From NCBI GenBank assembly GCA_000002435.2, contig CM018793.1: a stretch of DNA of 64,000 bases. One strand, given 5' to 3'. This document shows, piece after piece, positions 934 to 52,352 of this stretch. The notes under the pieces were generated by a model that had not been told where the DNA came from, searched no databases, and saw nothing but the letters and a program-made list of their open reading frames with translations. How positions within the stretch are numbered: position 1 is the stretch's first letter; each line of letters opens with the position of its first letter. The translations under genes were made by a program, and so were the position numbers. Source of the DNA: Giardia intestinalis (Eukaryota).

Positions 934-988
934 ACCTAAAGAAATTGGGAGGGCTGGGGAAAAGCAAGTAAATAAAGCAGGTAAATCC

Positions 989-1747: not shown

Positions 1748-1771
1748 CCAATCACTGGTGCAAATTTACCT

Positions 1772-31626: not shown

Positions 31627-32862
31627 ATGCCCGGGTGTATCTTTGCTGCACGGCCGCGGATAGTTGGATACAAGCGTTCGCCGTTTGGACGTGTTGGTGG
31701 TTCTATTAGCAAGGTGCACCCTAGCATACTGGCAGCAGCCGTTGTAGACGCAACTCTAGCGAGTAGCGAGCTCAATCCTGCAGATGTATCTGCGATGGTT
31801 GTTGGCCACAGCTTGCCATCCTTTTGCGGTCAACACGCAGCTCAGCAAATTGTCTCCAAAAGTACATTGCTGGCCACGCCTGTGCCTGCTATTTCAATCA
31901 ACGTCGTTTGCAACTCTGGTATAGAGGCAGTTATTGAGGCTTGCAGACGCATCAGTGTAGGCGAGGGATTAGCGTATCTCGCCGTTGGGATGGAGAGTAT
32001 GTCTCGCGCACACATGGTGCATTCTAATATCGCTACCGACGTGGCCACCATTCATGACGGGCTTCTAGATGCAGAGACCCAGAGATCTATGGGGGATATC
32101 GCAGAAGAGTATTATTCCAAGCAGCACTATACCCGCCAGCAGCTTGAAGCGGTGGCCGTCGCTTCGTGTGAAGCAGCTCTGGCTCGTGCAAAGCCAGAGC
32201 TTGTTCATATTGAGCTCGACCCGGCGTCAGGCACTGTCAGCGCAGTGACATATACAGCTAGGGGAGATTCTGCTTCTGTTCATTCCTTGAAACTTGTATT
32301 CTTGCCTCCTGCTGCGGTCCCTGTTTCTTTCTGTGAAGATGAACAGCTAATCAGATACAATCGGACGAAACTTCCATCTCTTCGCTCCTGCTTTCGCGAT
32401 GCCGGTCTCTTAACCTCTGGGACAACCAGTGCAATGAGCGACGGCGCTGTCGCAATAGCGCTAGTAGCCCCAACCTATGAAGGAAGCCTTGCACCATGTG
32501 AGCCACAAGCAGAAGTTCTTGGATACTTCTATCTGGTTACATCCGGGTTAGAATATCTCAGAGCGCCGATAGATGCAGCATGCGCGTTATCTTCCTTGCT
32601 CGCGCTACCGCGATCAGACATCTCCTGTATCCGCATTACCGAAGCGTTTGCTGGCTTAGTTCTAGACATACAAGTAGAGTTTCCCGATTCAGTCGTTAAT
32701 AAGAATGGAGACGCACTTGCCTATGGTCACCCTCTAGCTGCTAGTTCGTGCAGAATTGTCGGAGACCTCATGCAGGACTTAGAGCCAGGATGCATTGGTT
32801 TGGCGTGTGCATGCAATGGTGGTGGAGGTGGTTATGCAGTCTGTCTCCGTAGAATCCGGTAA
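31627..32862 (+). CDS. thiolase (acetyl-CoA C-acetyltransferase family), 411 aa
   Basis: N-terminal IFAARPRIVGYKRSPFGRVGGS (cf. VIVSAARTPIGSFGGSL). Nucleophile motif NVVCNSGIEAV (cf. NRLCSSGLQAI). C-terminal VNKNGDALAYGHPLAASSCRIV (cf. NVNGGAIALGHPLGASGARI) and ACACNGGGGGYAVCL (cf. CIGGGQG). Starts 28 bp after cathepsin stop. Confidence 0.8.
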   Translation: MPGCIFAARPRIVGYKRSPFGRVGGSISKVHPSILAAAVVDATLASSELNPADVSAMVVGHSLPSFCGQHAAQQIVSKSTLLATPVPAISINVVCNSGIEAVIEACRRISVGEGLAYLAVGMESMSRAHMVHSNIATDVATIHDGLLDAETQRSMGDIAEEYYSKQHYTRQQLEAVAVASCEAALARAKPELVHIELDPASGTVSAVTYTARGDSASVHSLKLVFLPPAAVPVSFCEDEQLIRYNRTKLPSLRSCFRDAGLLTSGTTSAMSDGAVAIALVAPTYEGSLAPCEPQAEVLGYFYLVTSGLEYLRAPIDAACALSSLLALPRSDISCIRITEAFAGLVLDIQVEFPDSVVNKNGDALAYGHPLAASSCRIVGDLMQDLEPGCIGLACACNGGGGGYAVCLRRIR

Positions 32863-32871
32863 AGCAGAGGT

Positions 32872-35800
32872 TTACTTGGTCACCGTAATTGTTCCGCTGG
32901 CAGGGGGGCGTGTGCATTTTCCGATTAATGGCACAACCCAGAAGCCACCTTGCTTATTGTATACGACAAGGCTTGCGCTATACTCTCCGAAGCTTTGGGG
33001 CGAAAACTTGAGAGAAATAGTAAACGGCTGACCATACGATGCCGCCACCTCGGCCGATGTTAATCCAAAACAAGCAAGATTGTTCTGAATAGCCTTACCA
33101 TCGACGATTCCTAACACTGTTTCTCTCGTCTTGGTTGACACAGCCCCGCTGGCTGTCTTCTTCGAAATAAGCTCATTGATACCTGCTATGTCATGCATTT
33201 CAGTTAGCCCAAGGGCATACACGATTTTCTCCGTCGGCTTTGGCCTGAGATTATTCACAAGGGTAATCGTGAATGGAAGAGTAGTCCCCACGTCAGCCTG
33301 AACCTTCATAGGAGAGGACGGCCGTGGGATGTAACACATAAGCTCAAGAGTGTAATCAACCCGGCACAGCTCGCTCTTCTCCACACCGCTTAAAATTGTT
33401 GATACACCGAAAGACACCTTTGTATTGATAGCCCCCGAGTCAAAGGGGACATATGGATTGAACTTGACTTTGAATGAGTAGGTGCTCGTCTTGTTGTTGA
33501 ACGTAACTGTCTCTGGTGTAATCGTAAGATCATCACGATCATTTGTGGCAGTAAGTGTGAGGGAAGAAATAGTCTTGTTACTGAGAAGAGGGTTTGGTAT
33601 AGTGATGAGCTTCTCCACAGGGTCGCGCACAGTTGTCTCCAGGGCAGCGCGGCCAACAACTGGTGCCCCGCCAGATTCAAAGACAAAGCGATAAATAAGC
33701 TTCTCGTTCGTTTCATGTGCCACAAAAGATAGGGTTCCTGCAAATAGCTTTCCAGATATAAACGGCATAAACCCTAGCTCTATATTCCGAACTGCTCCTA
33801 TAGCGGGAGCATCCACTATCTCCGGATAGTTCAGCTGGCAGAAGGTGCTGAGAGAAGAATCTAGGAACTGGACATCAACGGTGAAGCGCTGCATTCGCTT
33901 TTCCCAATTCCGCAGAGGGAAGGAGAATGTAGTATACCGATAACAAGTGGCCTCCACACCTGTGCAGATGGTCCTCTGGGCCTTTGTGAGGGTATCAATA
34001 AAGCTCTGGGGAAGGCCCTGTGGCACGCCTGCCACTGACGTCTGCTTTCCTTTGTCCTTCCCAACTATAGCCACAGACGCTCCCGATTTGCCAATTAGGT
34101 CGTTGTAATCTGCCTCTTGCATATTAGTAATCACAGCTTCATCCATAGGCTGCCCAACCGTTCCATGCAGGGCCCATATACTTGCCCCTCCATCTGCACC
34201 TGCAATGTAGAGGTCAGCACGATGCAAGTCAGCAGTAGCAAGAGGACTATACATGACCTTAAAATCCATTCCGCCTGGTGGTATACTGAGCCGCTCCGGA
34301 ACCTGGAATTGTCTGGCGTCTGGTCCGTCCAGAATAGAACGTACGACAAAGACAGAATCTGTGTTGTTGTCAACGTGTAGTATGGTGAATGTAGATTCAC
34401 GGGCATTGCAGGACATATGGACTTCTTGGGCGTTAGGTGCTGCCTCCATAGATGCCTTGTCAAGACATACACAGCGAAGGGTGGCTTCCCCGACTACAAT
34501 CATCTTCCCCTCCAGTGTGCACTCTACGGGGATGCTGGGGATAAAGTGCCGGCAAACCTGCTGTGGGGAAAACTTCACTGTGATAGTAGCGTTCGTTCCA
34601 ACTGGAATAAGTCCCGAGACAGGACTAATCGTTACCACCCCCTTCTCAAAAAGCTCCAGAAGGCTCTTCTTAACGAGACCCTTTGGAGGGACAGAGATGG
34701 TATAACGTAGCTCTGTATCGCCAGTATTTTCGATGAAGAAGTTTCTGGACACAAAGGAGTTTATAATACATGGGGGCATCTCTATATTCTGATTTATAAG
34801 CTTTGCTGATGAGCCCAAGACTGCGCCTTTAATGCTGATAATGCTATCAAAAATGATACTATCTTCAATGCTAATCGAGGCCGAAATCTGGAACTGCGGT
34901 GTCCGAGAAACCGGACTGTGCATGATCATAATTGTGCAGAGTTGATTTGGAAGCATTTCACTCTCCTTAGGGAGCCCTGTCAAATAGATTTGCTTAGTGT
35001 TTCTATTGCTCCAGTTATCAAGCATATCCATGCACTTATTAAAGTAATCGTGGTATTGCTCTGTAGGGACTATTGCCAAGAAAAGTCCCTTAGGGACTTC
35101 ATCTGAAGAGACGTCATTGACCGCTACACGCGCATGCATAGTGGCGCTCGTTGTATTCTTGATATTAACGGCCTTGATAATTGGCGGGCTGGAAAGCGAG
35201 GTGCTTCCCAAATTAATAACAGTTAGCGCATGCGACGTACTGAGATTGCTGTAAGAATTGATAAGAGATCCACTCAACACATCATGCAGAGCAAAGCTGC
35301 AATCAATACCTTGACCTGTCAAAGGATAGCGCAACTTATAGAGCCCGTTGACCATAACGGTAAGCATGTCCTTGAACTTTCCGGCGTAGCCGGGTATAAA
35401 CTTGATTGCTACATCATGTGTCCTTCCAACGCGTAGAGGCTCAGAAAGAGGTGGAGTATCGATGAAGAAGTCGTTTGTTCCGAGGAAGTATTCCATGGTA
35501 AGTGGCTGAGTATCCCTGTTCACAAAGGAAATGACCCTTGGAGCATACTTATCGTGGCGGAGAGAATTCAACATGGCTCCATAATCCAAGCGAGTTATTT
35601 CCGTATGCAGCCCAGGCTTCAGCCCAGTTCCTAGAAGTTGCAACTCTTGTGACCCACAGCCCTCTACACTGACCGTGAAGGTTAGACCGAAATCCTTAGT
35701 AAGTCGCAGTTCCAAAGTAGGTTGAAACTTCAGGGTTATGAAGACATGATCTCCTGGTTTGATAGTTTGCTTAGATGTTGCGTTGGTTTCCTTATCTCCA

Positions 35801-38800
35801 TCCGAGGTTTCCACTTCATACTCAAGACAGCTTTTAGCCCGTTTAAATTCTACTTCGTCACGCCTTGCAGTAGAATTATGACGCTTCAGAGAAAGAATGC
35901 ATGTATATCCTATCGTGTGGGAGCCAATATTTGAGAGCCTGAGTGTTCGTGAACGGTAATCCGAAACAAATACGGTTTCAAAATTAAGCTCACTGTGCGA
36001 GCCTAGCTGGTGGGGAAGGCCAACTGGGGTGTCTGGAAGGAGCTCAAGAAGATGCTTTGCATTAAATGACTCATATTTGACATTGAGGGAAAGCGGTACA
36101 GACCGTCGCGGCATCACAATTTTTATCAGTTGATTGATGCGTCCCTCGCATGTAGGCTTCACAGTGAATAGTATAGACGTTGTCGACAGGGGCTGAAGTA
36201 TTCCCGCTGTCGGAGTAATGGTGCACTGGAAGGATGCATTGGCACTATCATCGTCCACCATGTTCTTAGCAGGTTGCGCTAGGCGAATCTTATAATTCAT
36301 TGGATACTTTTCAGTATTAGTCAAGCTCACTTCCTTGGTAGCACAATCACCAACAAGAATGGGATTGAATGACAACTTATTAGTGCTTAGTATAACCTCC
36401 GGCTCAGTGGGCCGCCCGACAACGAGTAGAGGCAACGTAACATCATGTTGAGGAATGCGAAGTATAAAGAAGCCCTCCTCAACTCCAGCACGAGTGCTCT
36501 CTCTGGTGGGGGTATAATCGAAGCGTATGATAGAGGTTTCGCCAGGCGATACGCGGCCACCGGCGCCGAATGTCGACACTATACTGGAGTTGCTTTCGGG
36601 AAGGCGCTGCAGCGTTACATCGTACGGCTGATTAATGCAGTTCAGAACGGTGATATGGTTCGTGATAGTAATCCCAACACCCTGTCCGAGTATTTCTAAG
36701 ACCTTCACTGACTTCGGATTAGAACAAATCAAATTGGCAAATGATTGCGGGGTCTTCATAGAGCCGGGGCGCATCGTCTGGAGGTACACATTGTTGCTGT
36801 TGCATTCTAGATGACAGACAGGCAGGATGGCCATAGCTGAGAGAGACAACGATATGTTGCCAGCAGTGGAGGCGAACACTTCATGATGAGCTCCAGGGAA
36901 GCGAGGCTCATAAGAAATATTATATCGTATCAGGTACCGGTTGATATTTGGATTGCTCGATGTTAGTGCAGTTTGGAGAGCGTTTAAGGCGTTCTTGTCT
37001 ATCTGGGTCTTTGCTCCTATACCAACCTTTGCCATAAGCCCGGAGATAGAGGGAATTTCTGGCAAGGTCGGATAGTACTCACGAACAAGGGAAGCCAGTA
37101 AATCAGGCCTTGCAGGAACCATGGCAATCTCGGTTTTTCCATCGAGAACAGGCTCAACAAGATAGGGACTCTCGGGTTGTGATGTAGCCATAGAATTGAA
37201 TATGACAACAGGACTTGTCTGTGAATCGTTAAGCAGATAGAAGGCAGCAGCAGACTTTTGAAGGATTGGTGTGCTAACCATTGGGAACTCCAAAAGTGAG
37301 TATCCATTGACGCTATCAGCTTTCAATGTCAGCGGCTCTAAGTCTCCAGTTGACGAGCTACTAAAGCACTTAACTGAAAAGTCACCCGCAAAGCCGAAGA
37401 GGTTAAGCTCGAGAAAACTCGACGCCAATGCAATACGGTTGTCCGGCGCATGGATATCAGATAGCACCTTCTGAAGCAAAGCCTGTCTATCAGCAGGGTG
37501 AGCAGCCTTGGTGGACGCCTGCGATGGTCCTTTTCCAGTACGTGGCAAACCGTCGGTAAGATCTCGGGATGAGACCATTTCTTCGAGCAGGCTCCTTACC
37601 TCATCCTCATCTAGATAAACCTGATATTCTGGCTCTGGACAGACAGTCTCTGTGCGAACAGCAACACCGTTAGCATTTGTCACGTAACTTATCGTTGTTT
37701 GAGCATTGTCCCAGTCATTAACGCGTCGCCCTGGCTGGAACATGATTGGGTAATAGCGACAAATCAAGGGAGTGCCGAACAGCACTGTCTGACCATATTT
37801 TGACGGCATTTTCTTGGTTTTTAGCGGTGCTGCCTTACCTCCAGGCACACTGAAAAGAGAAGCAAACTCATCAGCGTTCCCTGGGCAAGTGAGACGAAGG
37901 ATAATCGTCTTCTTTGCCCCTGCATGGATGTGGCCTATTGATGGGTGAACAATTACACCAAGCTTCCGGCAAAGATCTATGTTGAATTCAAATCGGATGT
38001 GGTTTGTACTGGTGTTCTGTAAGATAACCTCTGTATTATATATTGCCGAGGTGAGAGTGGTCATATATTGTGGAATTGGCGGCGGAGAGCTAACAGACAT
38101 TGATGAACTTTGTGAGGGTCTGCTTTTCGGCCGTGCGTTGCTAGGCTCTGTAGATGGCAGTGATGTCTCGCCGAACTTCTCTTCTTCCGAGCCTGCCAAG
38201 TTAAGAGGGAGATCTTTGAGATAGACATTGGCTCGATTGCTGATTGCCTGATTGAAGTGTACATCTCCATACGTAGAGATCTGGTTTTGGCGTAGCTGCT
38301 CGTATGCCTTACTATCCGACAGATGGCTGAGAATCGTCTCAGTCAGCTGTTCTGCCTTAGGGTTGCCAAATGTCCCAAATAGTAGAGCAGTGGTTTCTTT
38401 ATACATGATTTGTATAGCTGTGCTTATAAACCGGCCCTCTATGGCGTTCAGCTTGCTAGAAATGGCGATACACTGGAGAGGAATCTCCGCGACGTTATAG
38501 TCCACGAAGCTCGTCATAACCTTGAGGGTCAGTGTTGCAGTAATAACTTCCCCATTAGGGAATTTGGCCAACGCGGCTGTGTTTGGGGCTATGGTAAAAT
38601 AGTTCTTCGTTGACGCCGGAAGAACGACAAGGCCTGTAAAAAGCCTTCCTTGTGGAATGGGCTCCTTGACATGTATCTCCTCCCCATCCTCTATAACAGG
38701 ATCAGAGGAGCCACGGCCCTGTGATTGCAAAATCACGAAGCAGTCCGCGTGGCGCATATCTTGTGAACTGATGACGATTGCATAAGATGCACTGACGCGG

Positions 38801-41800: not shown

Positions 41801-44800
41801 CCTATGAAGAGGGTTTCCTTATAGCTCTTGTCTTCTGGAGGAAAGCATGTGATATAAATGGCAGACCGCTCACCTGGCTGGAGAGTCAATCTGTATGGAT
41901 AAACAACGAACACTGGTTCCACATCGGCAACTGGTGCTCCCTTGGTACCAGGCTTACCTTGCTGCTTTGTTCCGCTCTTACTTGTTTGAAGGGATCCATC
42001 GAATAGTAAATCTTGAAGGGAAAGGGTTGGATCTGTAGATGAGAAGACCTTCTGCAGGCCTTCTTTAACAACAGAGACGACTTCATCGGAAGAGAAGTTA
42101 ATCTCGGTGCCTCTACTGCTGTTAGCATGCGTTAGTTCTGCGAGTCCATGGAGCATGCTATCAAAGATAAAGGCCACGGTAACGGGGAAGTAGCTGTCAT
42201 TGATTATGCTGAGCACCTCCATATGTTGTGGCGTAAATTTGCATATGGTGTCAGCAATAAACTTGCACGCCCTCTGATGGGTTAGAGTATCCAGCTTAGT
42301 CAGAAGACAAGATGGTGATGCTTCAGGCTTATTTCCCTGGTTCTGCCCTTCATCCTTTGGTAATGCAGAGACAGAGGATGACGGCCGTGATCGTACCTTA
42401 GTCGAGGGGCGTTGCTTTGTGCCTGGCATAACGTCAAGAGGGGCCTCAGATGCAGCGTATGGATTGGAAAAGGCTGAGCTCATGGAAAAGAACTCTGGTC
42501 TCTGAAGGCCTGATCGTAAATATCCAAATCCAAAAAGGGCAACGGGCTCCCCTGGCCGAGGCTTTACTGAAACCTCAGCTGGTCGCTGCACAATTGCAAC
42601 TGGCTCCCCTTTCTGATCTGAATCATTAAAGTTAGGGGTTTGTGATACTTCCGCGGCAGCACTTGATTCATCGGGCCCAGGTTGTGTGCCAGATGTTGTA
42701 AGCATGGCTGTAGACATTCCATCTGGTAAAGGAGTGAGAGACTTTCCATTCTTCGTCGCAGTACGGGCCGTAAATATGACGTTCAACTGCTCTATTATAT
42801 GGGGGAAGTCACATTTGCAGACAAATACAAGCGGGAAAACAGTGCTGCAGCCTCGAACACCAAAGTGCACCCGAAGCTTTGTGGTAAGAATGCTATTGGA
42901 GACAAAGCGGAACCCAACGCGTAGGCTGGAATGAGGCTTGAGAATCCAGCGAGTAGATCCCATCTCGCTTGGAAAATCCACGCCACTGAAAAGGGTCCGT
43001 ATGTTTGTCTCAGCGTTGTCCTTTGCCGCCTGTTTTTCTGCCAAACTTTGAGATAGTTGCTTTGCGTTAGCTCCCTTACTAGACAAGGACGCCTGCAAGT
43101 CCTTTATCTCTGCGCAAATAGTCTGCACTTGTTTCTGAGCGTCTTGGAACGAGTAGATGGTAGAAGAATTTGCTGGCAAGACACGGGCGATGCGCTTGAA
43201 AGTCTGTTCGTGTTCATATTGAAAGACCGCAGCATCATACAGGCACTCAAGCATCACCTTGGGGGACATGAATTCCTTATTCATAATGGCACCTGTGACA
43301 TGCTTAAGGGTTGCGAATGCTGGTGAGCGCGCATACTTCTGAAGCATTTTGTTCAGCACCTGGATCGGCGTCTTGGACGTGCGCGACTTCTTTCGATCTG
43401 TGACTTCAAGGGATTCCACAGCTGGAGCAACGGACTCGACATCTGCGCCTGCATCTGTAACAGCCATAGTTCGCTCGGGGTCAGGGATGTCGCTCTCATC
43501 ACTTGCAATTCCGCTAAAGCTCTCCTGTTTGTAGTCGGCAGCATCAAATATAACATCCAGTATCCTCTGGATAGTTTCTATAACGTAAAGGTCATCGCTT
43601 GTCTGCACGTGGAGAAAGCTTGTAAAGGTTCCTTGCCCAGAGATACTTTGCGCAGAGGAATACGTGGCTAAGTTGGTTAGCTTTTTCTGAAGAATCGAGG
43701 TATAGCAAGTATAGGCTTTGCGGACGCGGTGAAGAATCTCTTCAAGGGTCGAGGTTGGATCGATGCGATTTGACGCAGTGGTGTCCATGTACGTCACCAG
43801 AAACATATTTTCTTCATTGATCTTAGTAACAGGGTGTGGAGGAAGAGCTTTTTCAAGCTCAGCCACGACTTTAGTTGCCTCATCGACGGCCTGCTGCAGT
43901 CTTTTCTGGTCTGCCTTCTTTGCTTGTGAAAGCGCTTCCTGAGCTTGCTTCAGCGTATCAAGGGCCTTTTTGTAACTTGCCTCTTCAGGGGAGAAGCTAT
44001 CCATAGATCCTGATGAGCTTCTATAGGCGTCGATGCTAGTTTTGTGCGCTAGGGTGACTAGTTCCTTAATAGCGTGAAGCGCAGAATTAATAAGGGGAAC
44101 AGACTTCAAGTACATTTGATGGGCAGCGCCGTGGGGATCATCGACAACGAAAACAGTGTCATAGAAGGGCGTAACATATGTCGCAGCAGATGCACCAGGT
44201 CCTTGCTCGTCTCCATTAGCCACGGCATCTGTGACAGTGGTTGCAGCAGGGCCTAGATCGGAATCAGATAAGGCAGGAATCTTCTGTCTGGGCGAAAGAG
44301 ATGCTTCTTTTGGCTCCTTAGAATGCAGGGCAAGCTCCTTATCATATTGCTTCTTGGCGCCGGAAAGAGCTAATCTAACCATAGAAATCTTGGTCTCTGC
44401 TTTGCGTGTCTCTGCTGGCTCTGTTTCATCTTGAACTGGCACCCCCATTTCGACGCTTTTATAGTCATTGACAAGGATCTCCATGGCTCTGCGGCGACTA
44501 TCAACTGGAGAGCAGTCCAGGATTATTGTATGGAAAAGTAGCCGTGAAGACACATTCTGTGCAGAGTAAAAGATCGGTTTCATGAAGTGCTTTACAGATG
44601 CCTTTGCAATGACTATGATTGCATCCCCGACATCTCGGACGGCGCTACACGTTAGTGAATCAAAGATAAGCCCGGTTAGACTGTGAGTATAACTAGTTCC
44701 ACCTTCATCTGCCGTTATACCCTCCAATGACGTAGTCCTCGCTCCAAACGTCTCTACGATTGATGTATATAGTGAGTCTGCAAGGGCATCGAGGTAGTCC

Positions 44801-47800
44801 GGCTCCTTCATTGGATCTGTAGCTGGCGCAGCCTCTTCCGTCTTCTTTTTAGGAACATTCTTTCCGCCCGATTCGGGAGGCTTCTTGGAGGCATCCTCCC
44901 ATTGGGAGACTCTAACTAAGATATCCTTATATGCCTTGCTGTTTTCAAGTAAATTCTCTAAGGACAAAATGGGCATCTGCACCCCTTTGCTCAGTGCATC
45001 CACGGCTTCTCTTGGCCTGTTATAGAACGAAGAAATTTTGTTTGCTAGAGTTGTCTTTCCTGCTAAGGGGGCTCCGTGAATGACATAAACGAGAAAGGGA
45101 AGGTTGCTGAGACATGTATCGTTACTAGCGATCCGGTAGCTTCTGCCTTTGATTACAGACGGCGCAATGCGCGCATATTTCTGAGTTAAAAGCTCTATGG
45201 GGCAAAGATCATATGCAAAGTCCTCTTGAGAAACTGGCGCATCTAAATACTGGATGGTCTCATCTTCAGCCGGTAGCTCACACGCATCTACCCGGGATAC
45301 TGGCAACTCAACGGACTTGTCCGCAGCCTCTGACTTGGCAGCTGATGCAACGTTTCTACTTGCCCCCTGAGTATCTGTACTAATAACAGAGCTTGTACGG
45401 TGTGCAGGATCCGGCTTATCGGAGCGCCCCGATGCCCCACGAGACTTACTGATGGTCTTACCAACCGAGACATCTGGTTCATATGTCTCGGTCGCCTCCG
45501 GCGGCAAATAACATTGCTCAAACCAGGCAACTAGCCTAGTCAGTCCCAGCTCCAATAATAACTTCTTAGTTATAGGACCCAAGCCATCCCCTGGAGCAGG
45601 CACTTCACTCAGAAGATGGGAATAGGTAGGGGGACGTGCCTGTTTATTATCGAGAGTAGATAGTATCTTAGTAGGCTTCCTAGCCCGAGCCTCCGTTTGA
45701 GTAAGCATGGGTTCCACAGCGTCGCTAGTCGGTTGCTCATTTGCAGCTAAAAGAGACAAGACATCCGGCTTTCCCAGTAAGGAAAGGACAGACGGACTGT
45801 TAGCGCCGTATGCAGCTGGAGTGTACGATCCCGCAAAGCGGTAAATAGAGTTGTTACTGGGATCTCCCTGAGTCCCATCAGAAGACCTGAGTGCTGGTTG
45901 AATTGTGGTCTTTCTGTCAAAGACAAGCATCTTTCCGCAATTCCTTGCTAACGAAGAGTACAGCAGCTGCTCGATATGATTGAATTTGTCAAACTCTTTC
46001 ACATATAGCTCATATGTCTCATCAGAATCATTCCGCAGCTCAACCACTTCAAAGCTCCCTGGTAACTCCTTAGGATAAATCGGCAAAAACTCAACGATCT
46101 GCTTGCTCAGGCGCACCGCCGGGTGAGTCCCGAGACCTACAAAATGCACCGTAACCTTAGATGAGTTTCCATTTATGCCACCCATCTTTACGTGGAAAAC
46201 TAAGGAGCCCCTAAAGTAGGTTCTATCCGTGCTATCTGGGAAGTAGTCAAACGGCTTGAACACGATATCCAGCAACAAATCGCTGGTCTTTGGAGCTAAC
46301 GAACCGTAGTTTTGGAGAGCGGTGTCCTCTGCAGTAATTAGTGTAAAGATATTGGGGTCGGTCCCAAGGAGCGGAGCCTCTACCGAGAGACCCTTTTCCT
46401 TTCCTTCCTTCAATAGGCCTACTACTCCACTTAGAAACTCAAATGTATAAGCAGCCTGCACGGCTGTCGGATTTTCAAGCCGCAGATTGAACATCTTTGC
46501 TTGTCCGTAAAGCACTTCACCGAAGTTTAACACATATGCGTCGGACTCCTTAATCGGCAGTGCCACAAAATTGGATGAGCATGCAGATAAATTGACCGGC
46601 CGAATTGTCGGTAGCGTCACTGAGACGTTGCAGGTCAAGAAGCCTATGATAGATTGCTTGAACTCAATCGGGATGACGAATACATAATTACCGAGGACAG
46701 CCTTATGATTTGCAGTATACATAATTGTAAGTGTGATGCTTTCGCCGCTGGGTAGACGAGAGACCTTTTCAGGCTCCACAGAGACTCCTGCTGGCAACAT
46801 GAAGCGCTTATCAAATGATAGATGCATGGGGGTGGATCCTTTGTTGTAGATAGTGATCGTCTGAGAGGTCTTTGTGCCGCGAATAACAGGGGGAAGAGAG
46901 ACCGCGACATTAAATAAGACAAACTTGTTGCAAAGATAGTTTGTAGACAGCTTCTCTCGAAGATGGTGATATTGGCCGTCGTTCAAGTGGATTGGCTGCT
47001 TGTTTGATGTAGGTGCTCTGGTAACTGACGATGCTTGAGAGACCATCGATGTCCCATCCAGGAACAGAGTTGTGCCGGGGGTCTCCTTTTTCGCCTGGTT
47101 CGTGGCTGACAATCGGTGAGCTACCGAAGGAGAAAGTAGTCGTGTTCTGGCAATGCTCATCTTCTTCTCAGACGGACGAACAGCATTATGGGCTGACCGG
47201 CTGGCGGCCTCTATGATGTCTTCTGCACCTATAATCGGAAAGGTTCCGTAATATCGATAGAATTCTAGGAAATTTATGCAAAGGTCGCTGGCTACGGAGT
47301 TCAGAACATAATCCTTGTGAAGAGAAGCAAGAAAGCCTTCGCTTGTTATTGTCTCTGTCCCTTTTGGCTCATAACGCACTCCATAGATTTCTAATGAGCC
47401 ATCTGGGCCTATTTTCTTGTGCAAAGTGCTGATTAATTGAGTCGAACAGGGTGATCGCAACTGTATACTGGTTGATGCCGCGTTTGCTTCAGAACTAGCA
47501 GAGTCTTCTGCCAGACATCGCAGACCCACGGCATCCACCTCAACATGACGAATATATAGACTCGCAGCAATCAGAAAGGCGTTATACGGGAGCAGTTCTG
47601 AAAGGGGAGAAGCAGATGCATTGTTGTCCCAAGGAAAAAGGTATTCCATAGGGGGGAGTGTGTTAGAGACTTGCGTGTGGGTCTCCGCCAGCAGGCTCCC
47701 ACCACTAACCAAGAGGGGACGCTCAATATACGCTTTGGCTGTGATGGGCAAAATCAGACGCTCCAAGTATCCTATTTTGATAGATAAAGGAATGTAAAGC

Positions 47801-50800
47801 GGTCCTGGAATGAGGGGTCGAACACTCAATGGTATCTCAAGAACGCTATGTCCATTGAGCTCATAACTAAAGTCAGAAACAGCAGCAGGAGAGGTCAGTA
47901 CCTGGAGTGGAGCATTACTAAGTTTGTTTATGAAGGGTCTGCACTCATAGGGTATGCTAATAACGACAGTAGTTTTCATGGGCGACTTATTGGTAATCGA
48001 TATCGTGCTGGTCTGCTCTGACGAAAAGGTGATATCCCCATAATTTATATAGCTAGGTCGGACATCGGCCTCAAGGTTACTTGTGCCAGCTCGTAATCCA
48101 TAGGAGTAGGACTCTCCCCCATCAATGGAGCATATCATTCTGCACTGATCTGTGCAGATCTCGTTTGTTTGGCCGACAAACGAAACATTGAATTTTGCCA
48201 GGTGGCCCGGAAGAAGGCCAGAGTTACCGTCCACGCCTAATGGAGTGATATCGTACTTGAACTTGTCCGAGCCTTGGGCCATTTGGAGAAGCCACTGGAA
48301 GCGAACCGGAAAACGGGAAATGTTCTTGCACAGTATTATCTGGGTTATGGTAGTGCCAACATTGGCCATTCCAAAGTCAATGATGCCCTTTTCAGGATCT
48401 GTAGAGGAGTTATCAAGCGGTAAGTCGTGCTTGGATGCTTGATTACTAAGGGCAGAATAAGCAGAATACATGTCTAAATTATGCTCCTTGAGGGTCGCCA
48501 ACGAACAGGAACGAAACTCGAGACTTGGGAAGAAGGCTGAAAGCTTCAGAGGCACTGCAACCGTGGGCACAGAAATGGGAAGTTGACCTGGAGGAAGAAG
48601 TCGGATTATAAGCGTAGAGTCAACAAACTTAGGCGTAGAGTCTGAACGAACGTAGTCTGTATCAACACTGATCTCTACGATACAGAATTCTTCTGAGTTG
48701 CCCTTCAGGTCTATAGACACCGTTTGTGCAAAGGCTGGAAAGTGCACCGGGCCGCCGAAAGTAATGGAGCAGGGATCAGTTGGTTGAATGGGTATTTCGC
48801 TGTCTTCTGATGTGCCCTTTTGCAGCCCAAGAGCTTGTCTGAAAGGGGAGCTCACATTGGCAGGCACTAGAGCACTGGCATCCTCATCTAGCTCATCGAC
48901 CGCATGATTTGATGCATCGCTGATAGTAGGTTCTTCGTCTCCATTGTTAGGAGGACATGCCACAGGAGCGCCATCTAGGCATTGCTCAATGGCGCATGGG
49001 GAAGGAGAATTATCTAGTGTTGCGGAAATGAAATCGCCACAATAGCCAGGATCATCAACCCTATCGGCAAGGCCTGCTTCAAGAGCTAGGGTATCGTGGA
49101 TATAGTGGCACACATGCTCATCATCCTTGGCTATAGCGCGAACCCGAAATGGGGCCTGGACAAGAATCTGCATCTTTCCAGGAAGACTGCTTGTATTCAC
49201 CAATTTTATAAACTTTGTTAGCTCGTGGTGTACGTAGTAGTAACCATCTGGTGAAACAAATTTCGCGAGGGGAACCGGCGGATCATTATTAAATGGAATA
49301 TTGTCTGCACCAAGAAATTGCGAAGTAACGTCTGCACGCTCAATGAAGTAATCTGGTGATGCAATAACTGGAAACTCTTCGTAAATAAAGTTTAGAAGAG
49401 AAGGGCGCTGTTTCTTGTTAGATACGCGTGTGCTGGGTCTATCTACAACAGAACCCGCGATACTTTCCGAAACATCAGTAATAGTCAGGGATGATTCAAC
49501 AGGCCTTCGAGTAACTTGTACGAGTGGCGCAGATCCTGGGCTTTGTCCTTTGCATACGAGTACAAGGTGTCGTTCAAGGAAGCTGTACTTTCCCAAGGAA
49601 AGAGGTTCGCAGCGCTCATGATAAAGTGAAGCAGTTTGCAGGCCTTCGTTCAAGGGCAGAACCATCTCGGAGGCAGTTACCTCTGCATTGATAAAACTAT
49701 AACAAAACGTGACCTGAAAGGCTACTTTAGTTTCCTTCCCGGGTACATTAGACTTCAGTTGATAGATCTCTCGACCGTTGGTGATAACAGACGGAACACG
49801 GCCCCTTAGCTTGAATGTATGGAAAGCCCCAGGTTGCAGCTGGACACGGTCTTGCTCGAATTTCAGGTAATGAGTGTTTCCTTGACCCTTTTTAACCCCG
49901 GGATTTCCTATGTAAACCCACGTGCAATTTTGGGCAAAGGCGCCGTGATTTTGAATAACAATGCTGTACTGCAGTTCCTCCGTGACAAACCACGTGCCAC
50001 AGTCAACGTTCGGTTCTTTGTTGAGATCTTGATGGGGGCATAGCAAGTTGGTCCCCTTTGCAGAGGCGTACATAGGCACTTTAATAACACTGCTAGTGGC
50101 CTTGATCGTATCCTCCGAGAGGCTGCAACTAGCATTCGCCAATGTCACATACACTAGCAGGTTCTCACGATAGGTACCTGCCTCAGTTGTGTAGAACGTG
50201 ATAGGAATGCTTGTTTCCTCGCCAGGGGCCACAAGCTTATCGCTAAACTCTTTCTCAATACTGAAGAAGGATCCGTGCTTTTCTGGAATCACTCTGCAGC
50301 GAGCAGAGGTCAGTCCGACGTTTTTCAGAGTGAGCGGTAGGTGCACCACGTCGAGAACCCTGACGTAAGACTCCTTGTTGTTCGGCCGAGTAAACTCCAG
50401 AGGGCCGCCGGCCTCTACACGGGGGCCTCTTGCAGAATACTGAACCATACAGGACAGCGTCTGCTTCTCAAAGGCGTCAGAGGTGAATGCAACTGGGATA
50501 ACCAAATGGCCCTGGGAGCGTGGGATGATTCCGCATTCAAGGGATTCTTCTGCACCAGGAAGAAGTACCCCACTCGCTTTGCTACAAGTAATTAGGCAAT
50601 TATCGAGAACATCTTGGACAGGAAAGCTCCAGTTACCTATCACAGACGCAACGTTCTTAATCTTAACGTTGAACGTATGCCTGTAACCAACGAACCCCTC
50701 TGCAATATTAATCACCGTGGGATCAATCTCAAACTTGGGATTGATGATTGATCCGATTATCTGAATAGTTTGTAGCGGGCGCTGAGAAGATGCGTGATAA

Positions 50801-52248
50801 AGATTTAGATCAATGTCCTTGTAAAACCCAGCACGGCGCTTAGGAAGGATCGTCAAAGAGACATGTGCATCTGCACCAGGTTTCAATCTAAGATGGGGCG
50901 GATTGACGCTAAAGTCTGAACAGGCCAAAAGCATTTCCTGCTTAGTGTCGCTGTTTCCCTGACCTTCGTGGTCAAAAACCCAACGGGACGGCTCAATCTT
51001 GAGCGTAAAGTCACATTCCAGTTGGGAGAGATTGCGCACTCGAAGATCCTTACTACTGGAGAAGCTGAAGGCCACAAGACCAAAGTCAATGATCCTGTCT
51101 TTATCGATCTCGTTAACCGCCAGAAACTCTTTGGTAAGCCAGGACATGTGCTCAACGTCGCTATGCTCATCACTATAATAAACCCCGCGCCGTCCATTGG
51201 CCTCATCAATAATGCGCCGCCGGAGCCGCTTATCGGCGATCAGGACACGAAGGTGTGTTTCGGTGAGACTGTCAGAGAAGACCTTCATCTCGACATTGGG
51301 AGCCACGGAAGTGGCTTTGATTTCAACGACAAGACACTTGCTCAGGCCAAGAATAGACCAGAGAGAAGGGATGATATATTCCTTTATAGAATGGGGGGTG
51401 AATGTAAGCTCTATATTGATATGAGATCTGGGTGGAATAACCCCACTAATACAGCTATATTGCAAAATGTAACTAGGATCATGCTCCTCCGTAGGCATCA
51501 AGTGAAACTCTACCTCTATCTCAGAGTGGTTTGTTAACGTGAGCTCACCCCGTGCAGAAGCACCGACCACGACTGCCCTGAAGCGAAGCTCGTCACAATC
51601 AAACTCAACTTCCGGACCAACCGCTAATGCACGCATCCGGAGAGGCTGACGTTCTTTGCTGCCCGTGCACTCAATCCAAGCGGTGGTGTCGTGCGGACCT
51701 GAAACTGATGGTTGAAAAGTAACTGTGAAAGTACACTTGCTGCTAGGATAGATTGTTCCAGAAAGAGGGAAGACAGAGAAGGGCAGTAGTAGCTCATGAA
51801 AATCGGGGTCTTCCCCGTTCTGAGGACAGGGGTAGGCTTTAACCTTAAAAGTTGTCACGACGTCGGACATATTCATTAGGTCTACATGGGATGTGGCTGT
51901 ATGGGTAACTAGAGTCTTAGGAAAATTATCGAGCACCGTCCGCTCCAACTTAAATTCAGCAGAGTATGAACTACAGATGAGAGCGACGGATTTGTATAGA
52001 GCCTTATTGAGAGAAACATGTAAAGTACCCCGGTTCACCCCAACATTGGTAGGGTGACAGGTAAGAGTGAGTTGCTTGGAAATCATTGGAGGAAGGCTGA
52101 CACTGGTGGGAGAAACAGAGAAGGGCCCGTCAGTGACAAAAGTAAGCCCCATGGGACCGTCACTGTCATTCATCAGAAAGAGAGGCCTTTCAGCAGTGAT
52201 TCCATATGGCGTAGCATCGAAGACCACCTCCGTAGGAAGATCGACCAT
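32872..52248 (-). CDS. giant (6458 aa) single-exon protein, hydin-like (flagellar central-pair protein), with embedded adenylate-kinase-like P-loop
   Basis: Uninterrupted 19,377-nt ORF, ATG 52248 with AT-rich leader. Long series of about 100-aa beta-rich repeats consistent with ASH/PapD-like Ig domains. Internal P-loop VYVIHGAPLAGKTTLANKIS (about 45040..45100), reminiscent of the Hydin ADK-like domain. Size class matches hydin. Not a dynein (no multiple AAA P-loops). Confidence 0.55.
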   Translation of the reverse strand: MVDLPTEVVFDATPYGITAERPLFLMNDSDGPMGLTFVTDGPFSVSPTSVSLPPMISKQLTLTCHPTNVGVNRGTLHVSLNKALYKSVALICSSYSAEFKLERTVLDNFPKTLVTHTATSHVDLMNMSDVVTTFKVKAYPCPQNGEDPDFHELLLPFSVFPLSGTIYPSSKCTFTVTFQPSVSGPHDTTAWIECTGSKERQPLRMRALAVGPEVEFDCDELRFRAVVVGASARGELTLTNHSEIEVEFHLMPTEEHDPSYILQYSCISGVIPPRSHINIELTFTPHSIKEYIIPSLWSILGLSKCLVVEIKATSVAPNVEMKVFSDSLTETHLRVLIADKRLRRRIIDEANGRRGVYYSDEHSDVEHMSWLTKEFLAVNEIDKDRIIDFGLVAFSFSSSKDLRVRNLSQLECDFTLKIEPSRWVFDHEGQGNSDTKQEMLLACSDFSVNPPHLRLKPGADAHVSLTILPKRRAGFYKDIDLNLYHASSQRPLQTIQIIGSIINPKFEIDPTVINIAEGFVGYRHTFNVKIKNVASVIGNWSFPVQDVLDNCLITCSKASGVLLPGAEESLECGIIPRSQGHLVIPVAFTSDAFEKQTLSCMVQYSARGPRVEAGGPLEFTRPNNKESYVRVLDVVHLPLTLKNVGLTSARCRVIPEKHGSFFSIEKEFSDKLVAPGEETSIPITFYTTEAGTYRENLLVYVTLANASCSLSEDTIKATSSVIKVPMYASAKGTNLLCPHQDLNKEPNVDCGTWFVTEELQYSIVIQNHGAFAQNCTWVYIGNPGVKKGQGNTHYLKFEQDRVQLQPGAFHTFKLRGRVPSVITNGREIYQLKSNVPGKETKVAFQVTFCYSFINAEVTASEMVLPLNEGLQTASLYHERCEPLSLGKYSFLERHLVLVCKGQSPGSAPLVQVTRRPVESSLTITDVSESIAGSVVDRPSTRVSNKKQRPSLLNFIYEEFPVIASPDYFIERADVTSQFLGADNIPFNNDPPVPLAKFVSPDGYYYVHHELTKFIKLVNTSSLPGKMQILVQAPFRVRAIAKDDEHVCHYIHDTLALEAGLADRVDDPGYCGDFISATLDNSPSPCAIEQCLDGAPVACPPNNGDEEPTISDASNHAVDELDEDASALVPANVSSPFRQALGLQKGTSEDSEIPIQPTDPCSITFGGPVHFPAFAQTVSIDLKGNSEEFCIVEISVDTDYVRSDSTPKFVDSTLIIRLLPPGQLPISVPTVAVPLKLSAFFPSLEFRSCSLATLKEHNLDMYSAYSALSNQASKHDLPLDNSSTDPEKGIIDFGMANVGTTITQIILCKNISRFPVRFQWLLQMAQGSDKFKYDITPLGVDGNSGLLPGHLAKFNVSFVGQTNEICTDQCRMICSIDGGESYSYGLRAGTSNLEADVRPSYINYGDITFSSEQTSTISITNKSPMKTTVVISIPYECRPFINKLSNAPLQVLTSPAAVSDFSYELNGHSVLEIPLSVRPLIPGPLYIPLSIKIGYLERLILPITAKAYIERPLLVSGGSLLAETHTQVSNTLPPMEYLFPWDNNASASPLSELLPYNAFLIAASLYIRHVEVDAVGLRCLAEDSASSEANAASTSIQLRSPCSTQLISTLHKKIGPDGSLEIYGVRYEPKGTETITSEGFLASLHKDYVLNSVASDLCINFLEFYRYYGTFPIIGAEDIIEAASRSAHNAVRPSEKKMSIARTRLLSPSVAHRLSATNQAKKETPGTTLFLDGTSMVSQASSVTRAPTSNKQPIHLNDGQYHHLREKLSTNYLCNKFVLFNVAVSLPPVIRGTKTSQTITIYNKGSTPMHLSFDKRFMLPAGVSVEPEKVSRLPSGESITLTIMYTANHKAVLGNYVFVIPIEFKQSIIGFLTCNVSVTLPTIRPVNLSACSSNFVALPIKESDAYVLNFGEVLYGQAKMFNLRLENPTAVQAAYTFEFLSGVVGLLKEGKEKGLSVEAPLLGTDPNIFTLITAEDTALQNYGSLAPKTSDLLLDIVFKPFDYFPDSTDRTYFRGSLVFHVKMGGINGNSSKVTVHFVGLGTHPAVRLSKQIVEFLPIYPKELPGSFEVVELRNDSDETYELYVKEFDKFNHIEQLLYSSLARNCGKMLVFDRKTTIQPALRSSDGTQGDPSNNSIYRFAGSYTPAAYGANSPSVLSLLGKPDVLSLLAANEQPTSDAVEPMLTQTEARARKPTKILSTLDNKQARPPTYSHLLSEVPAPGDGLGPITKKLLLELGLTRLVAWFEQCYLPPEATETYEPDVSVGKTISKSRGASGRSDKPDPAHRTSSVISTDTQGASRNVASAAKSEAADKSVELPVSRVDACELPAEDETIQYLDAPVSQEDFAYDLCPIELLTQKYARIAPSVIKGRSYRIASNDTCLSNLPFLVYVIHGAPLAGKTTLANKISSFYNRPREAVDALSKGVQMPILSLENLLENSKAYKDILVRVSQWEDASKKPPESGGKNVPKKKTEEAAPATDPMKEPDYLDALADSLYTSIVETFGARTTSLEGITADEGGTSYTHSLTGLIFDSLTCSAVRDVGDAIIVIAKASVKHFMKPIFYSAQNVSSRLLFHTIILDCSPVDSRRRAMEILVNDYKSVEMGVPVQDETEPAETRKAETKISMVRLALSGAKKQYDKELALHSKEPKEASLSPRQKIPALSDSDLGPAATTVTDAVANGDEQGPGASAATYVTPFYDTVFVVDDPHGAAHQMYLKSVPLINSALHAIKELVTLAHKTSIDAYRSSSGSMDSFSPEEASYKKALDTLKQAQEALSQAKKADQKRLQQAVDEATKVVAELEKALPPHPVTKINEENMFLVTYMDTTASNRIDPTSTLEEILHRVRKAYTCYTSILQKKLTNLATYSSAQSISGQGTFTSFLHVQTSDDLYVIETIQRILDVIFDAADYKQESFSGIASDESDIPDPERTMAVTDAGADVESVAPAVESLEVTDRKKSRTSKTPIQVLNKMLQKYARSPAFATLKHVTGAIMNKEFMSPKVMLECLYDAAVFQYEHEQTFKRIARVLPANSSTIYSFQDAQKQVQTICAEIKDLQASLSSKGANAKQLSQSLAEKQAAKDNAETNIRTLFSGVDFPSEMGSTRWILKPHSSLRVGFRFVSNSILTTKLRVHFGVRGCSTVFPLVFVCKCDFPHIIEQLNVIFTARTATKNGKSLTPLPDGMSTAMLTTSGTQPGPDESSAAAEVSQTPNFNDSDQKGEPVAIVQRPAEVSVKPRPGEPVALFGFGYLRSGLQRPEFFSMSSAFSNPYAASEAPLDVMPGTKQRPSTKVRSRPSSSVSALPKDEGQNQGNKPEASPSCLLTKLDTLTHQRACKFIADTICKFTPQHMEVLSIINDSYFPVTVAFIFDSMLHGLAELTHANSSRGTEINFSSDEVVSVVKEGLQKVFSSTDPTLSLQDLLFDGSLQTSKSGTKQQGKPGTKGAPVADVEPVFVVYPYRLTLQPGERSAIYITCFPPEDKSYKETLFIGVNGNPSYLAIGFSCAGQTPRIEYSLPECAEDLLPCSNISKDVDDLAANSTRYLANGYKLDAKDIVSGSKNASKAPTKGKDPAHENLYQLNNLLVPRVPTSTTESLEIPIENTSQLPLMVEYCPMHTELSMLTAVTQVVNYPEYLVKSSVKTTKYPRSTRIADQQYSWRVNNSLLINNARFYLGPGERKVLNVEYSSPTEARIVMPGKLLVRQHVGGLKNVPENDVLVDKSRANGPRLPTLDALGRAFLDPVVEHALNIICESHKVDVFTTIVGISESPDRIPSAVQSGESAFDTTKPNNNLNLGIVRALVYFKAELMLVNNGPYQVGYKIVVSKSFKDVIFLIEDSDSREKAERGKKQESSAPAQTRPIDPDMYKLVTIQSGTLGVDESNRPSSRPNPPQKQGKGASESSTSKVRISLIFRAPEARIYEKVPILQVTFFEPLTNLMLARNNVNLTAEAVFSQAKIQPERNIVFGEHPHGKVVSKTISIRNEGHFPFLLYIEPLEQVIKRWLLFGEASPFSDHAKKATNSELDASALRQFGVHLETVHELYRLCVENGLIRPSTEQKAQSKSVEKRSSAATTINLASIAALRSGPFIIQPSLLHLAPQESREVTVTFTSQANGNWRDYFIIDYTNKPPDYFGGSALTETFLASLLASLNDSAKTAPSILQTYISKNEDVQQRLAKLQYYVTNLPLLRYSLSAISIIPGIVTSNYSNIFEEQALSNQLPANPSMLVGGPTFSPISKIFCLGPCVIGSELSERIKVTNPYSVPCTVAIFLNFDQTRMTPQALDGVISERCGETSTQIVNFVSANLKKNAKRESATPSSQERSSQQAAKPPKPSGDKKDTTLVTNDNEAWSLENDFFRLLPNESTYVTLKYFPSAQVVSRCQVICVVVDHHFAVVDLIKNNLPGIFGLAQLQSGGSKQPTGKGMPPQDHVILQQLEDGLQEQDVARRRFSFIAEATGVLPEVSFSPQFVNLGKITVGASEMDLPTHPISILNTGRVSASYAIVISSQDMRHADCFVILQSQGRGSSDPVIEDGEEIHVKEPIPQGRLFTGLVVLPASTKNYFTIAPNTAALAKFPNGEVITATLTLKVMTSFVDYNVAEIPLQCIAISSKLNAIEGRFISTAIQIMYKETTALLFGTFGNPKAEQLTETILSHLSDSKAYEQLRQNQISTYGDVHFNQAISNRANVYLKDLPLNLAGSEEEKFGETSLPSTEPSNARPKSRPSQSSSMSVSSPPPIPQYMTTLTSAIYNTEVILQNTSTNHIRFEFNIDLCRKLGVIVHPSIGHIHAGAKKTIILRLTCPGNADEFASLFSVPGGKAAPLKTKKMPSKYGQTVLFGTPLICRYYPIMFQPGRRVNDWDNAQTTISYVTNANGVAVRTETVCPEPEYQVYLDEDEVRSLLEEMVSSRDLTDGLPRTGKGPSQASTKAAHPADRQALLQKVLSDIHAPDNRIALASSFLELNLFGFAGDFSVKCFSSSSTGDLEPLTLKADSVNGYSLLEFPMVSTPILQKSAAAFYLLNDSQTSPVVIFNSMATSQPESPYLVEPVLDGKTEIAMVPARPDLLASLVREYYPTLPEIPSISGLMAKVGIGAKTQIDKNALNALQTALTSSNPNINRYLIRYNISYEPRFPGAHHEVFASTAGNISLSLSAMAILPVCHLECNSNNVYLQTMRPGSMKTPQSFANLICSNPKSVKVLEILGQGVGITITNHITVLNCINQPYDVTLQRLPESNSSIVSTFGAGGRVSPGETSIIRFDYTPTRESTRAGVEEGFFILRIPQHDVTLPLLVVGRPTEPEVILSTNKLSFNPILVGDCATKEVSLTNTEKYPMNYKIRLAQPAKNMVDDDSANASFQCTITPTAGILQPLSTTSILFTVKPTCEGRINQLIKIVMPRRSVPLSLNVKYESFNAKHLLELLPDTPVGLPHQLGSHSELNFETVFVSDYRSRTLRLSNIGSHTIGYTCILSLKRHNSTARRDEVEFKRAKSCLEYEVETSDGDKETNATSKQTIKPGDHVFITLKFQPTLELRLTKDFGLTFTVSVEGCGSQELQLLGTGLKPGLHTEITRLDYGAMLNSLRHDKYAPRVISFVNRDTQPLTMEYFLGTNDFFIDTPPLSEPLRVGRTHDVAIKFIPGYAGKFKDMLTVMVNGLYKLRYPLTGQGIDCSFALHDVLSGSLINSYSNLSTSHALTVINLGSTSLSSPPIIKAVNIKNTTSATMHARVAVNDVSSDEVPKGLFLAIVPTEQYHDYFNKCMDMLDNWSNRNTKQIYLTGLPKESEMLPNQLCTIMIMHSPVSRTPQFQISASISIEDSIIFDSIISIKGAVLGSSAKLINQNIEMPPCIINSFVSRNFFIENTGDTELRYTISVPPKGLVKKSLLELFEKGVVTISPVSGLIPVGTNATITVKFSPQQVCRHFIPSIPVECTLEGKMIVVGEATLRCVCLDKASMEAAPNAQEVHMSCNARESTFTILHVDNNTDSVFVVRSILDGPDARQFQVPERLSIPPGGMDFKVMYSPLATADLHRADLYIAGADGGASIWALHGTVGQPMDEAVITNMQEADYNDLIGKSGASVAIVGKDKGKQTSVAGVPQGLPQSFIDTLTKAQRTICTGVEATCYRYTTFSFPLRNWEKRMQRFTVDVQFLDSSLSTFCQLNYPEIVDAPAIGAVRNIELGFMPFISGKLFAGTLSFVAHETNEKLIYRFVFESGGAPVVGRAALETTVRDPVEKLITIPNPLLSNKTISSLTLTATNDRDDLTITPETVTFNNKTSTYSFKVKFNPYVPFDSGAINTKVSFGVSTILSGVEKSELCRVDYTLELMCYIPRPSSPMKVQADVGTTLPFTITLVNNLRPKPTEKIVYALGLTEMHDIAGINELISKKTASGAVSTKTRETVLGIVDGKAIQNNLACFGLTSAEVAASYGQPFTISLKFSPQSFGEYSASLVVYNKQGGFWVVPLIGKCTRPPASGTITVTK

Positions 52249-52352
52249 GCTTTGGTTTTGCTCTGAATTTCAAAAAAGCTTAAAAATCCAGGGTTGTATA
52301 ATTTTACTCTCTCATAATGCTTTAACGAAAAGATAGCCAAAAGGATTGGTTC

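Follow-up and report, generated by a model that had tools for sequence, protein, structure and literature searches.

Contig CM018793.1 of Giardia intestinalis (assembly GCA_000002435.2) carries a minus-strand open reading frame (ORF) of 19.4 kb, which raises the question of what so large a gene encodes. We analysed a 64,000-nucleotide stretch of this contig, which is referred to as the window and in which all positions are counted. The ORF occupies 32872..52248 on the minus strand. An initial annotation had described it as an uninterrupted single-exon ORF for a hydin-like flagellar giant of 6458 amino acids (aa). The ORF list and the translation agree with this description, giving an ATG start, zero internal stops, and 6458 codons followed by a stop. 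By exact-sequence look-up, the product is GL50803_137712 (GL50803_00137712; XP_001708077.1; UniProt A8BBV7), whose public name is "hypothetical protein"; the name given to its counterpart in assemblage A2 is "MSP domain-containing protein". As detailed below, GL50803_137712 is very probably the G. intestinalis orthologue of hydin, the giant central-pair scaffold protein of 9+2 axonemes. The ORF list, the translation, the exact-sequence look-up, and a 1130-bit collinear profile match support 32872..52248 as its complete single-exon coding sequence, stop codon included.

Homology to hydins

The Pfam model ASH (PF15780), which has a cut-off of 27 bits, matches both halves of the protein, the N-terminal one at 92.7 bits and the C-terminal one at 70.5. 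For HYDIN_VesB_CFA65-like_Ig, the corresponding scores are 129.6 and 79.3 bits, and the related Ig models CFAP65, CFAP74, DLEC1, Cep192, and MSP match as well. A bona fide mammalian hydin yields an identical list of Pfam families. Among solved structures in the PDB, the best sequence matches are Chlamydomonas reinhardtii HYDIN (7sqc chain F0 and 7n6g chain 1J, ~4900 aa; E = 1.6e-21 and 3.2e-21) and mouse HYDIN (E = 1.1e-16), followed by weaker matches to FAP65 (1.6e-13) and then CFAP65 and DLEC1, down to 2e-4. In a single-sequence search involving the C. reinhardtii protein, only one Giardia stretch, aa 157-253, passes. The initial annotation had taken multiple AAA modules as the sign of a dynein or midasin-like protein. 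One Walker A motif is present in the 6458 residues and no AAA family is among the Pfam matches, so that a multi-AAA giant of the dynein or midasin type is ruled out.

A homologue database search with aa 1-5000 as the query returned 43 proteins, namely five diplomonad orthologues and 38 others. All 38 non-diplomonad homologues are 2800-5700 aa long and have the hydin domain repertoire. Every informative source name among them is "Hydin" or "hydrocephalus-inducing protein", with examples from Andalucia, Phytophthora, Asterias, Podarcis, and Trypanosoma. No second Giardia hydin paralogue surfaced in this search.

We then inspected how the similarity is distributed along the protein. BLASTP against seven distant hydins (from a jakobid, a starfish, a lizard, two kinetoplastids, an oomycete, and a chytrid) gave high-scoring segment pairs lying on one N-to-C diagonal. 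The C-terminal quarter contains the strongest of them, with E = 1e-36 to 1e-47 for the jakobid, starfish, lizard, oomycete, and chytrid hydins. A profile of 4474 states built from 24 aligned full-length hydins matches the Giardia protein with 1130 bits in seven strictly collinear segments, which cover positions 150-4386 of the profile and aa 1-6456 of the Giardia protein. When the lizard and Giardia proteins are both placed on this profile, a Giardia counterpart is aligned with 27 of the 28 Ig domains that can be detected in lizard hydin, and the first domain is aligned for only 40%. The domain order is that of animal, fungal, oomycete, kinetoplastid, and jakobid hydins. As the collinearity with animal, chytrid, oomycete, kinetoplastid, and jakobid hydins extends over the full length, the protein is to be regarded as an orthologue and not merely as hydin-like. 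Hence the hydin architecture proposed in the initial annotation is borne out by the ASH and HYDIN Ig scores, the identity of the homologues, and the full-length collinear profile match.

The Ig domains are less readily counted. An iterated hydin Ig/ASH profile finds 19 domains in the Giardia protein versus 26-29 in most full-length hydins, and profile-profile comparison (hhalign) in sliding windows finds about 18. It is plausible that Giardia hydin has about 30 Ig domains, of which about 20 are directly detectable and about a third have diverged too far to be recognized alone. Accordingly, the "dozens of ~100-aa beta-rich repeats" noted in the initial annotation hold insofar as the alignment implies about 30, while direct detection stops at about 20.

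Two blocks stand out. The N-terminal ASH/Ig block (aa 1-900; 49549..52248, minus strand) includes the Pfam ASH match at aa 6-87, HYDIN and CFAP65 Ig matches, the PDB matches to HYDIN, and the profile segments aa 1-141, 157-321, and 386-899. The best-conserved block is the C-terminal Ig block (aa 5127-6456; 32881..36870, minus strand), with the BLASTP values of 1e-36 to 1e-47 and the profile segments aa 3339-6046 and 6098-6456. By analogy with solved axonemes, the former would correspond to the C1-anchor and bridge part of hydin, and the latter to the domains running along the C2 microtubule.

The likeness to mouse and human HYDIN (PDB 9ijj chain 4G, 5154 aa, with 33 ASH domains and an adenylate kinase (ADK)-like domain in the C2b projection) lies in an ASH/Ig chain of the same order and in a C-terminal third that is strongly conserved (E ~1e-44 to 1e-47). 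However, pairwise identity is only 20-24% in the aligned parts, and only about 20 domains are detectable in the Giardia protein. Hydins of excavate-grade protists, namely Trypanosoma vivax "Hydin" (4513 aa), the Leishmania proteins (5549-5554 aa), and Andalucia godoyi "Hydin" (4270 aa), are likewise encoded by single-exon genes and show collinearity with the Giardia protein. These kinetoplastid and jakobid hydins differ in keeping about 140 N-terminal residues that are absent from diplomonads and in lacking the diplomonad inserts.

The P-loop and the ADK-like module

The only G-x4-GK[ST] motif of the protein lies within the Walker A segment VIHGAPLAGKTTLANKIS (aa 2389-2406, with G2392, G2397, and K2398), which was found by motif scan and by the hydin alignment. 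The initial annotation had placed a lone Walker A at about nt 45040-45100, about a third of the way along the protein. Its precise position is 45031..45084 on the minus strand, 37% along the length. The P-loop pattern [IV]hGpPlsGK[ST] is found at relative positions 0.32-0.50 in 24 of the 38 non-diplomonad homologues. It reads IHGAPLTGKS in vertebrates, at 40-41% of the length, and IHGAPLAGKT at 0.37 in Giardia, so both conform to IHGAPL.GK[ST]. The kinetoplastid and jakobid hydins have no precomputed Pfam Hydin_ADK match, yet carry the P-loop at 0.38-0.39 of their length. In the other 14 of the 38, for example dinoflagellate Effrenium and several metagenomic sequences, the strict G-x4-GK[ST] is lacking at the ADK-like position.

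The P-loop is part of a putative ADK-like module at aa 2381-2559 (44572..45108, minus strand). A profile made from the ADK regions of 21 non-diplomonad hydins matches this region with 29.4 bits and aligns both the P-loop and GLIFDSL (aa 2526-2532; 44653..44673, minus strand). The latter is the counterpart, in the profile alignments, of the hydin consensus GvVfDGL and of G-F-L-L-D-G-F-P-R in adenylate kinase. When an alignment of diplomonad ADK regions was compared with one of all others, hhalign gave a probability of 98.7% and E = 2e-16 over 124 columns. A 14-sequence hydin alignment has G2392, G2397, K2398, and D2530 as its sole invariant columns. The profile of this alignment matches the ADK-like region of mouse HYDIN (E = 8.7e-22), AK9, and AK8, and also dozens of true adenylate kinases at ~1e-8, mostly over the first ~50 residues. 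The AlphaFold 2 (AF2) model of aa 2368-2662 has a predicted local distance difference test score (pLDDT) of 69.8 and a predicted template modelling score of 0.62. The order of its elements is that of a nucleoside monophosphate (NMP) kinase, running from strand, P-loop, and helix to strand (GLIFD), helix, strand (HTIILD), and helix. A Foldseek search with the module returned a mouse central-apparatus chain at the top and then P-loop kinases, but these hits are weak and not significant (best E = 0.042). Taken together with a sub-threshold Pfam match, these comparisons support the Giardia module as a very diverged homologue of the hydin ADK-like domain.

A side observation concerns the PDB entries. 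Chain Xf of 9fqr (1910 residues), which bears the label "Cilia- and flagella-associated protein 276", has four sites that match the P-loop profile. This pattern is that of adenylate kinase 9 (9d2f_A, 1894 aa), and the molecule name of the chain looks mismatched.

Diplomonad orthologues, inserts, and N-terminal loss

Full-length orthologues of 6448-6459 aa are present in other Giardia lineages, with 98%, 82%, and 78% identity. The G. muris orthologue (6123 aa) is 47% identical over a single-segment alignment. A third, diplomonad-like orthologue of 6015 aa comes from an SRA assembly (Logan SRR31929897 contig, L001 1-26048). It is only ~35% identical to the G. intestinalis protein; nonetheless, the gene order NFRKB-like winged-helix, guanylate kinase, hydin, thiolase is kept on that contig in comparison with window positions 31627-57394. 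These orthologues point to purifying selection on the Giardia hydin gene and to its age.

The initial annotation noted that the protein exceeds human hydin by about 1300 residues and expected lineage-specific insertions. The excess is confirmed (6458 versus ~5100 aa for vertebrate hydin), and the insertions could be mapped. Alignment to the hydin profile with hmmalign places 3982 residues in canonical match states and 2476 in insert states, so that ~38% of the protein is non-core. There are 27 inserts of at least 25 aa, 1821 aa in total. The largest ones are at aa 1036-1307, 2202-2374, 2810-2934, and 3200-3323. The first of these is the largest diplomonad-specific insert (48328..49143, minus strand); it is acidic in part, and some of it is probably disordered. 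For aa 900-1335, an AF2 model based on a five-sequence alignment has a pLDDT of 41 and no structure for about aa 1041-1173; at this low confidence it only hints at ~130 aa of disorder. The second, also diplomonad-specific, lies directly upstream of the ADK-like module (45127..45645, minus strand), which itself has extra loops relative to mouse and human HYDIN. The composition of the inserts is near that of the core, slightly richer in Asp, Glu, and Ala, and they are not low-complexity filler. They are common to the three diplomonad lineages, namely G. intestinalis and the two other orthologues. In G. muris, 87% of the insert residues are alignable with 43% identity, versus 55% for the core. 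In the third orthologue, 81% are alignable with 32% identity, versus 43% for the core.

The comparison also uncovered a loss at the N-terminus, which the initial annotation had not described. All three diplomonad proteins begin at about profile position 150 and skip positions 290-360. Every other hydin in the BLASTP set has 140-195 more N-terminal residues than the Giardia protein and aligns with it only from residue 142-197 onwards; relative to vertebrate hydin, the Giardia protein lacks the first ~190 residues. As in-frame stops crowd the region upstream of the ATG, no longer N-terminus is possible. Diplomonad hydin has lost ~150 canonical N-terminal positions, which include most of the first canonical Ig domain.

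Proposed role in the axoneme

The place of hydin in the axoneme is known from mouse sperm and Chlamydomonas. Its N-terminus binds C1 near protofilament 11, its Ig chain crosses the bridge in contact with CFAP47 and then bends to form the scaffold of the C2b projection, its ADK-like domain is located in this projection near the radial-spoke heads, and its last ~15 domains follow C2, where three molecules overlap every 16 nm (PMC12297659, PMC9113940). The 33 ASH domains of mouse HYDIN were counted by structure (PMC12297659). Loss of hydin in Chlamydomonas destabilizes the central pair and paralyses the flagella (PMC2063982). Giardia flagella are canonical 9+2 and contain PF16/SPAG6 (PMC4931700).

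By homology with mouse and Chlamydomonas, the N-terminal domains of Giardia hydin would attach to the C1 microtubule, and the chain would pass across the C1-C2 bridge. Its middle part, which includes the ADK-like module, would scaffold the C2b projection facing the radial-spoke heads, and the C-terminal ~15 domains would run along C2, overlapping neighbouring hydin molecules every 16 nm. In this way, Giardia hydin may hold the central pair together and set the periodicity in each of the eight flagella. Because the domain order is preserved, the central-pair role in Giardia is most likely the same as in mouse and Chlamydomonas. Central-pair location and motility role are proven for C. reinhardtii hydin.

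Evaluation of alternative explanations

Several observations weigh against the assignment to hydin. No localisation or knock-down data for GL50803_137712 were found in the open-access literature. An open-access paper naming a Giardia hydin, or a flagellar-proteome record for GL50803_137712, was not found either, most subscription journals being outside the search. Gl137712 is listed as an encystation-specific vesicle candidate and as "hypothetical protein, Giardia-specific" (PMC3986054, Table 1). In view of the homologues, the label "Giardia-specific" is wrong for what reads as a pan-eukaryotic axonemal protein, and its presence in the encystation-vesicle fraction is probably contamination. 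With the same profile, about 20 Ig domains are detectable by sequence in Giardia versus 26-29 in most full-length hydins. Pfam Hydin_ADK (PF17213) stays below its cut-off of 27 bits, scoring 16.4 (E = 0.011), and covers 30 residues around the P-loop only. The Hydin_ADK domain proposed in the initial annotation thus stands as homology of the ADK region (29.4 bits; 98.7% in hhalign), and not as a Pfam match. A precomputed PF17213 match is absent in many protist hydins (Andalucia, oomycetes, kinetoplastids), and the chytrid protein scores only 37 bits. Therefore, the miss is ascribed to limited reach of the model rather than to absence of the domain; the model covers mainly opisthokont hydins, and the P-loop is not universally retained. 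In addition, a profile of the diplomonad ADK regions reaches only adenylate kinase 9 in the PDB, with E ~1e-3 and over the P-loop alone, and the link to the hydin ADK domain needs intermediate sequences.

As for the gene itself, the ideas that the ORF arose by chance or through faulty assembly or annotation can be dismissed. No point in support of them was found; the probability of 6458 stop-free codons, computed from base composition, is ~1e-145, the same product is called identically on 33 contigs, and four other diplomonad lineages have full-length orthologues (6015-6459 aa) whose flanking genes are conserved. It is also extremely unlikely that the protein is another ASH giant of the central apparatus, of the CFAP47/FAP47, CFAP65/FAP65, CFAP74, or DLEC1/FAP81 type. 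CFAP47, CFAP65, and DLEC1 share the Ig-like domain type, and cross-matches occur in both Pfam (the CFAP65, CFAP74, DLEC1, and Cep192 Ig models) and the PDB (FAP65, CFAP65, and DLEC1). These PDB matches are weaker than those to HYDIN (1.6e-13 to 2e-4 versus 1.6e-21) and are explained by the common Ig fold, and all full-length homologues retrieved are of hydin type, none being named otherwise. The Giardia protein is collinear end to end with hydins and has an ADK-like P-loop at the hydin-specific position, whereas CFAP47, CFAP65, and DLEC1 are much shorter (CFAP65 ~1850-2250 aa; DLEC1 ~1740 aa), lack the ADK-like P-loop module, and are not collinear with it. The size suits hydin only. An identity as CFAP47, CFAP65, or DLEC1 was dropped on collinearity and size.

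If the protein is hydin, two functional alternatives are to be weighed. One, already suggested for mouse HYDIN, is that the internal module works as an active adenylate kinase, buffering ATP/ADP close to the radial-spoke heads. The catalytic residues of E. coli Adk include the NMP-site arginine R36 and R88 of the FPR motif D-G-F-P-R. At the equivalent positions, Giardia has Glu/Asn and Cys: it reads L-S-L-E-N-L-L-E-N where the enzyme has the NMP-site arginine, and D-S-L-T-C, with D-G-L-D-S as the hydin consensus, where the enzyme has D-G-F-P-R. Neither position is an arginine in Giardia or in the hydin consensus, and no LID segment is recognizable. With P-loop and Asp present but both arginines replaced and no recognizable LID, the module was not assigned to the catalytic NMP kinases. 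Catalysis would fit the invariance of the P-loop Gly, Gly, and Lys and of the Asp from Giardia to vertebrates and the ~1e-8 matches to true adenylate kinases, and a role in nucleotide metabolism has been proposed for mouse HYDIN (PMC12297659). The resemblance to true kinases, however, is essentially confined to the first ~50 residues, and the strict P-loop motif is missing in 14 of the 38 other hydins. An active kinase is therefore improbable. As the key arginines are replaced, the module most likely has a nucleotide-binding or purely structural function, without phosphotransfer activity.

The other alternative places the protein elsewhere in the cell: a hydin descendant could have been redeployed in a Giardia-specific microtubule structure, such as the ventral disc, the median body, the funis, or the long stretches of axoneme within the cytoplasm. 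In that case, the ~2500 extra residues would serve new interactions, and C1 anchoring would have gone with the N-terminus. In agreement with this, the non-core fraction is large, the long inserts are conserved in G. muris to the extent given above, all three diplomonad orthologues lack the first ~150 canonical positions as well as profile positions 290-360, and one proteomics study recovered the protein in a non-flagellar fraction. However, the central pair of Giardia axonemes is of the normal 9+2 kind (PMC4931700), and no other hydin candidate surfaced in the homologue search. The canonical domain order and number are fully preserved, as expected for the same lattice contacts, and a very large cytoskeletal protein in an organelle fraction would be a common contaminant. 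Redeployment is thus very unlikely compared with a central-pair hydin.

Gene neighbourhood and other features of the window

The big ORF and five neighbouring genes have exact matches among G. intestinalis WB proteins, and the look-ups assign the window to WB clone C6. The neighbours of the hydin gene include acetyl-CoA acetyltransferase (thiolase), cathepsin B, an ankyrin protein, and guanylate kinase. Genes farther away are ordinary housekeeping genes (helicase, RNB/Dis3-type, SF3a60-type, PIF1-type helicase, and others), and a flagellar gene cluster is absent. The thiolase ORF (31627..32862, plus strand) converges on the hydin gene, whose stop codon is at 32872-32874. The 9-bp stop-to-stop gap given in the initial annotation is reproduced by the ORF coordinates. 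With the two stop codons so close together on opposite strands, overlap of the 3' ends of the thiolase and hydin mRNAs is unavoidable. The Giardia polyadenylation consensus is AGTRAAY. It is fitted by AGTAAAC at 32870..32876 on the minus strand, which overlaps the hydin TAA stop; on the plus strand, no AGTRAAY was found within ~100 nt downstream of the thiolase stop. On the other side, a divergent intergenic region of 104 bp (52249..52352; 67% A+T) separates the hydin and guanylate kinase genes. A single exon and tiny intergenic spacers are normal for Giardia.

Two further ORFs of the window were noted. One, of 1258 aa (22828-26604, minus strand; TTG start as listed), has no Pfam match at E <= 1e-5 and lies where the G+C content of the window is highest (0.54-0.56 versus ~0.47 elsewhere). 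The other, of 1058 aa (58425-61601, minus strand), has EF-hand matches and a weak match to the EFCAB10 C-terminal EF-hand, and its product could be a calcium-binding flagellar or cytoskeletal protein.

Implications

Hydin is already well characterized and near-universal in 9+2 axonemes, so the Giardia copy is an expected, divergent but ordinary member of the family and does not change existing knowledge of hydin or axonemes. What is new is that a public "hypothetical protein" can be named hydin, and the value of this is mostly in annotation. Giardia hydin adds a central-pair marker for Giardia flagellar biology, and so divergent a sequence helps to define the truly invariant residues of hydin, namely Gly, Gly, and Lys of the P-loop and one Asp. 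A further reading, tentative and in our view rather doubtful, is that diplomonad hydin is a remodelled variant with lineage-specific densities or contacts in the C1-C2 bridge and C2b projection and, separately, that its ADK-like module is a conserved nucleotide-sensing domain and not a kinase. If so, diplomonads would have lost the N-terminal Ig domain that helps to anchor hydin on C1 in algae and mammals, and gained ~1800-2500 diplomonad-conserved residues. The extra contacts in the central apparatus would perhaps be tied to the unusually long cytoplasmic axonemes of Giardia. The P-loop Lys and the Asp would have been kept since the last eukaryotic common ancestor in the absence of catalytic arginines, which would point to nucleotide sensing.

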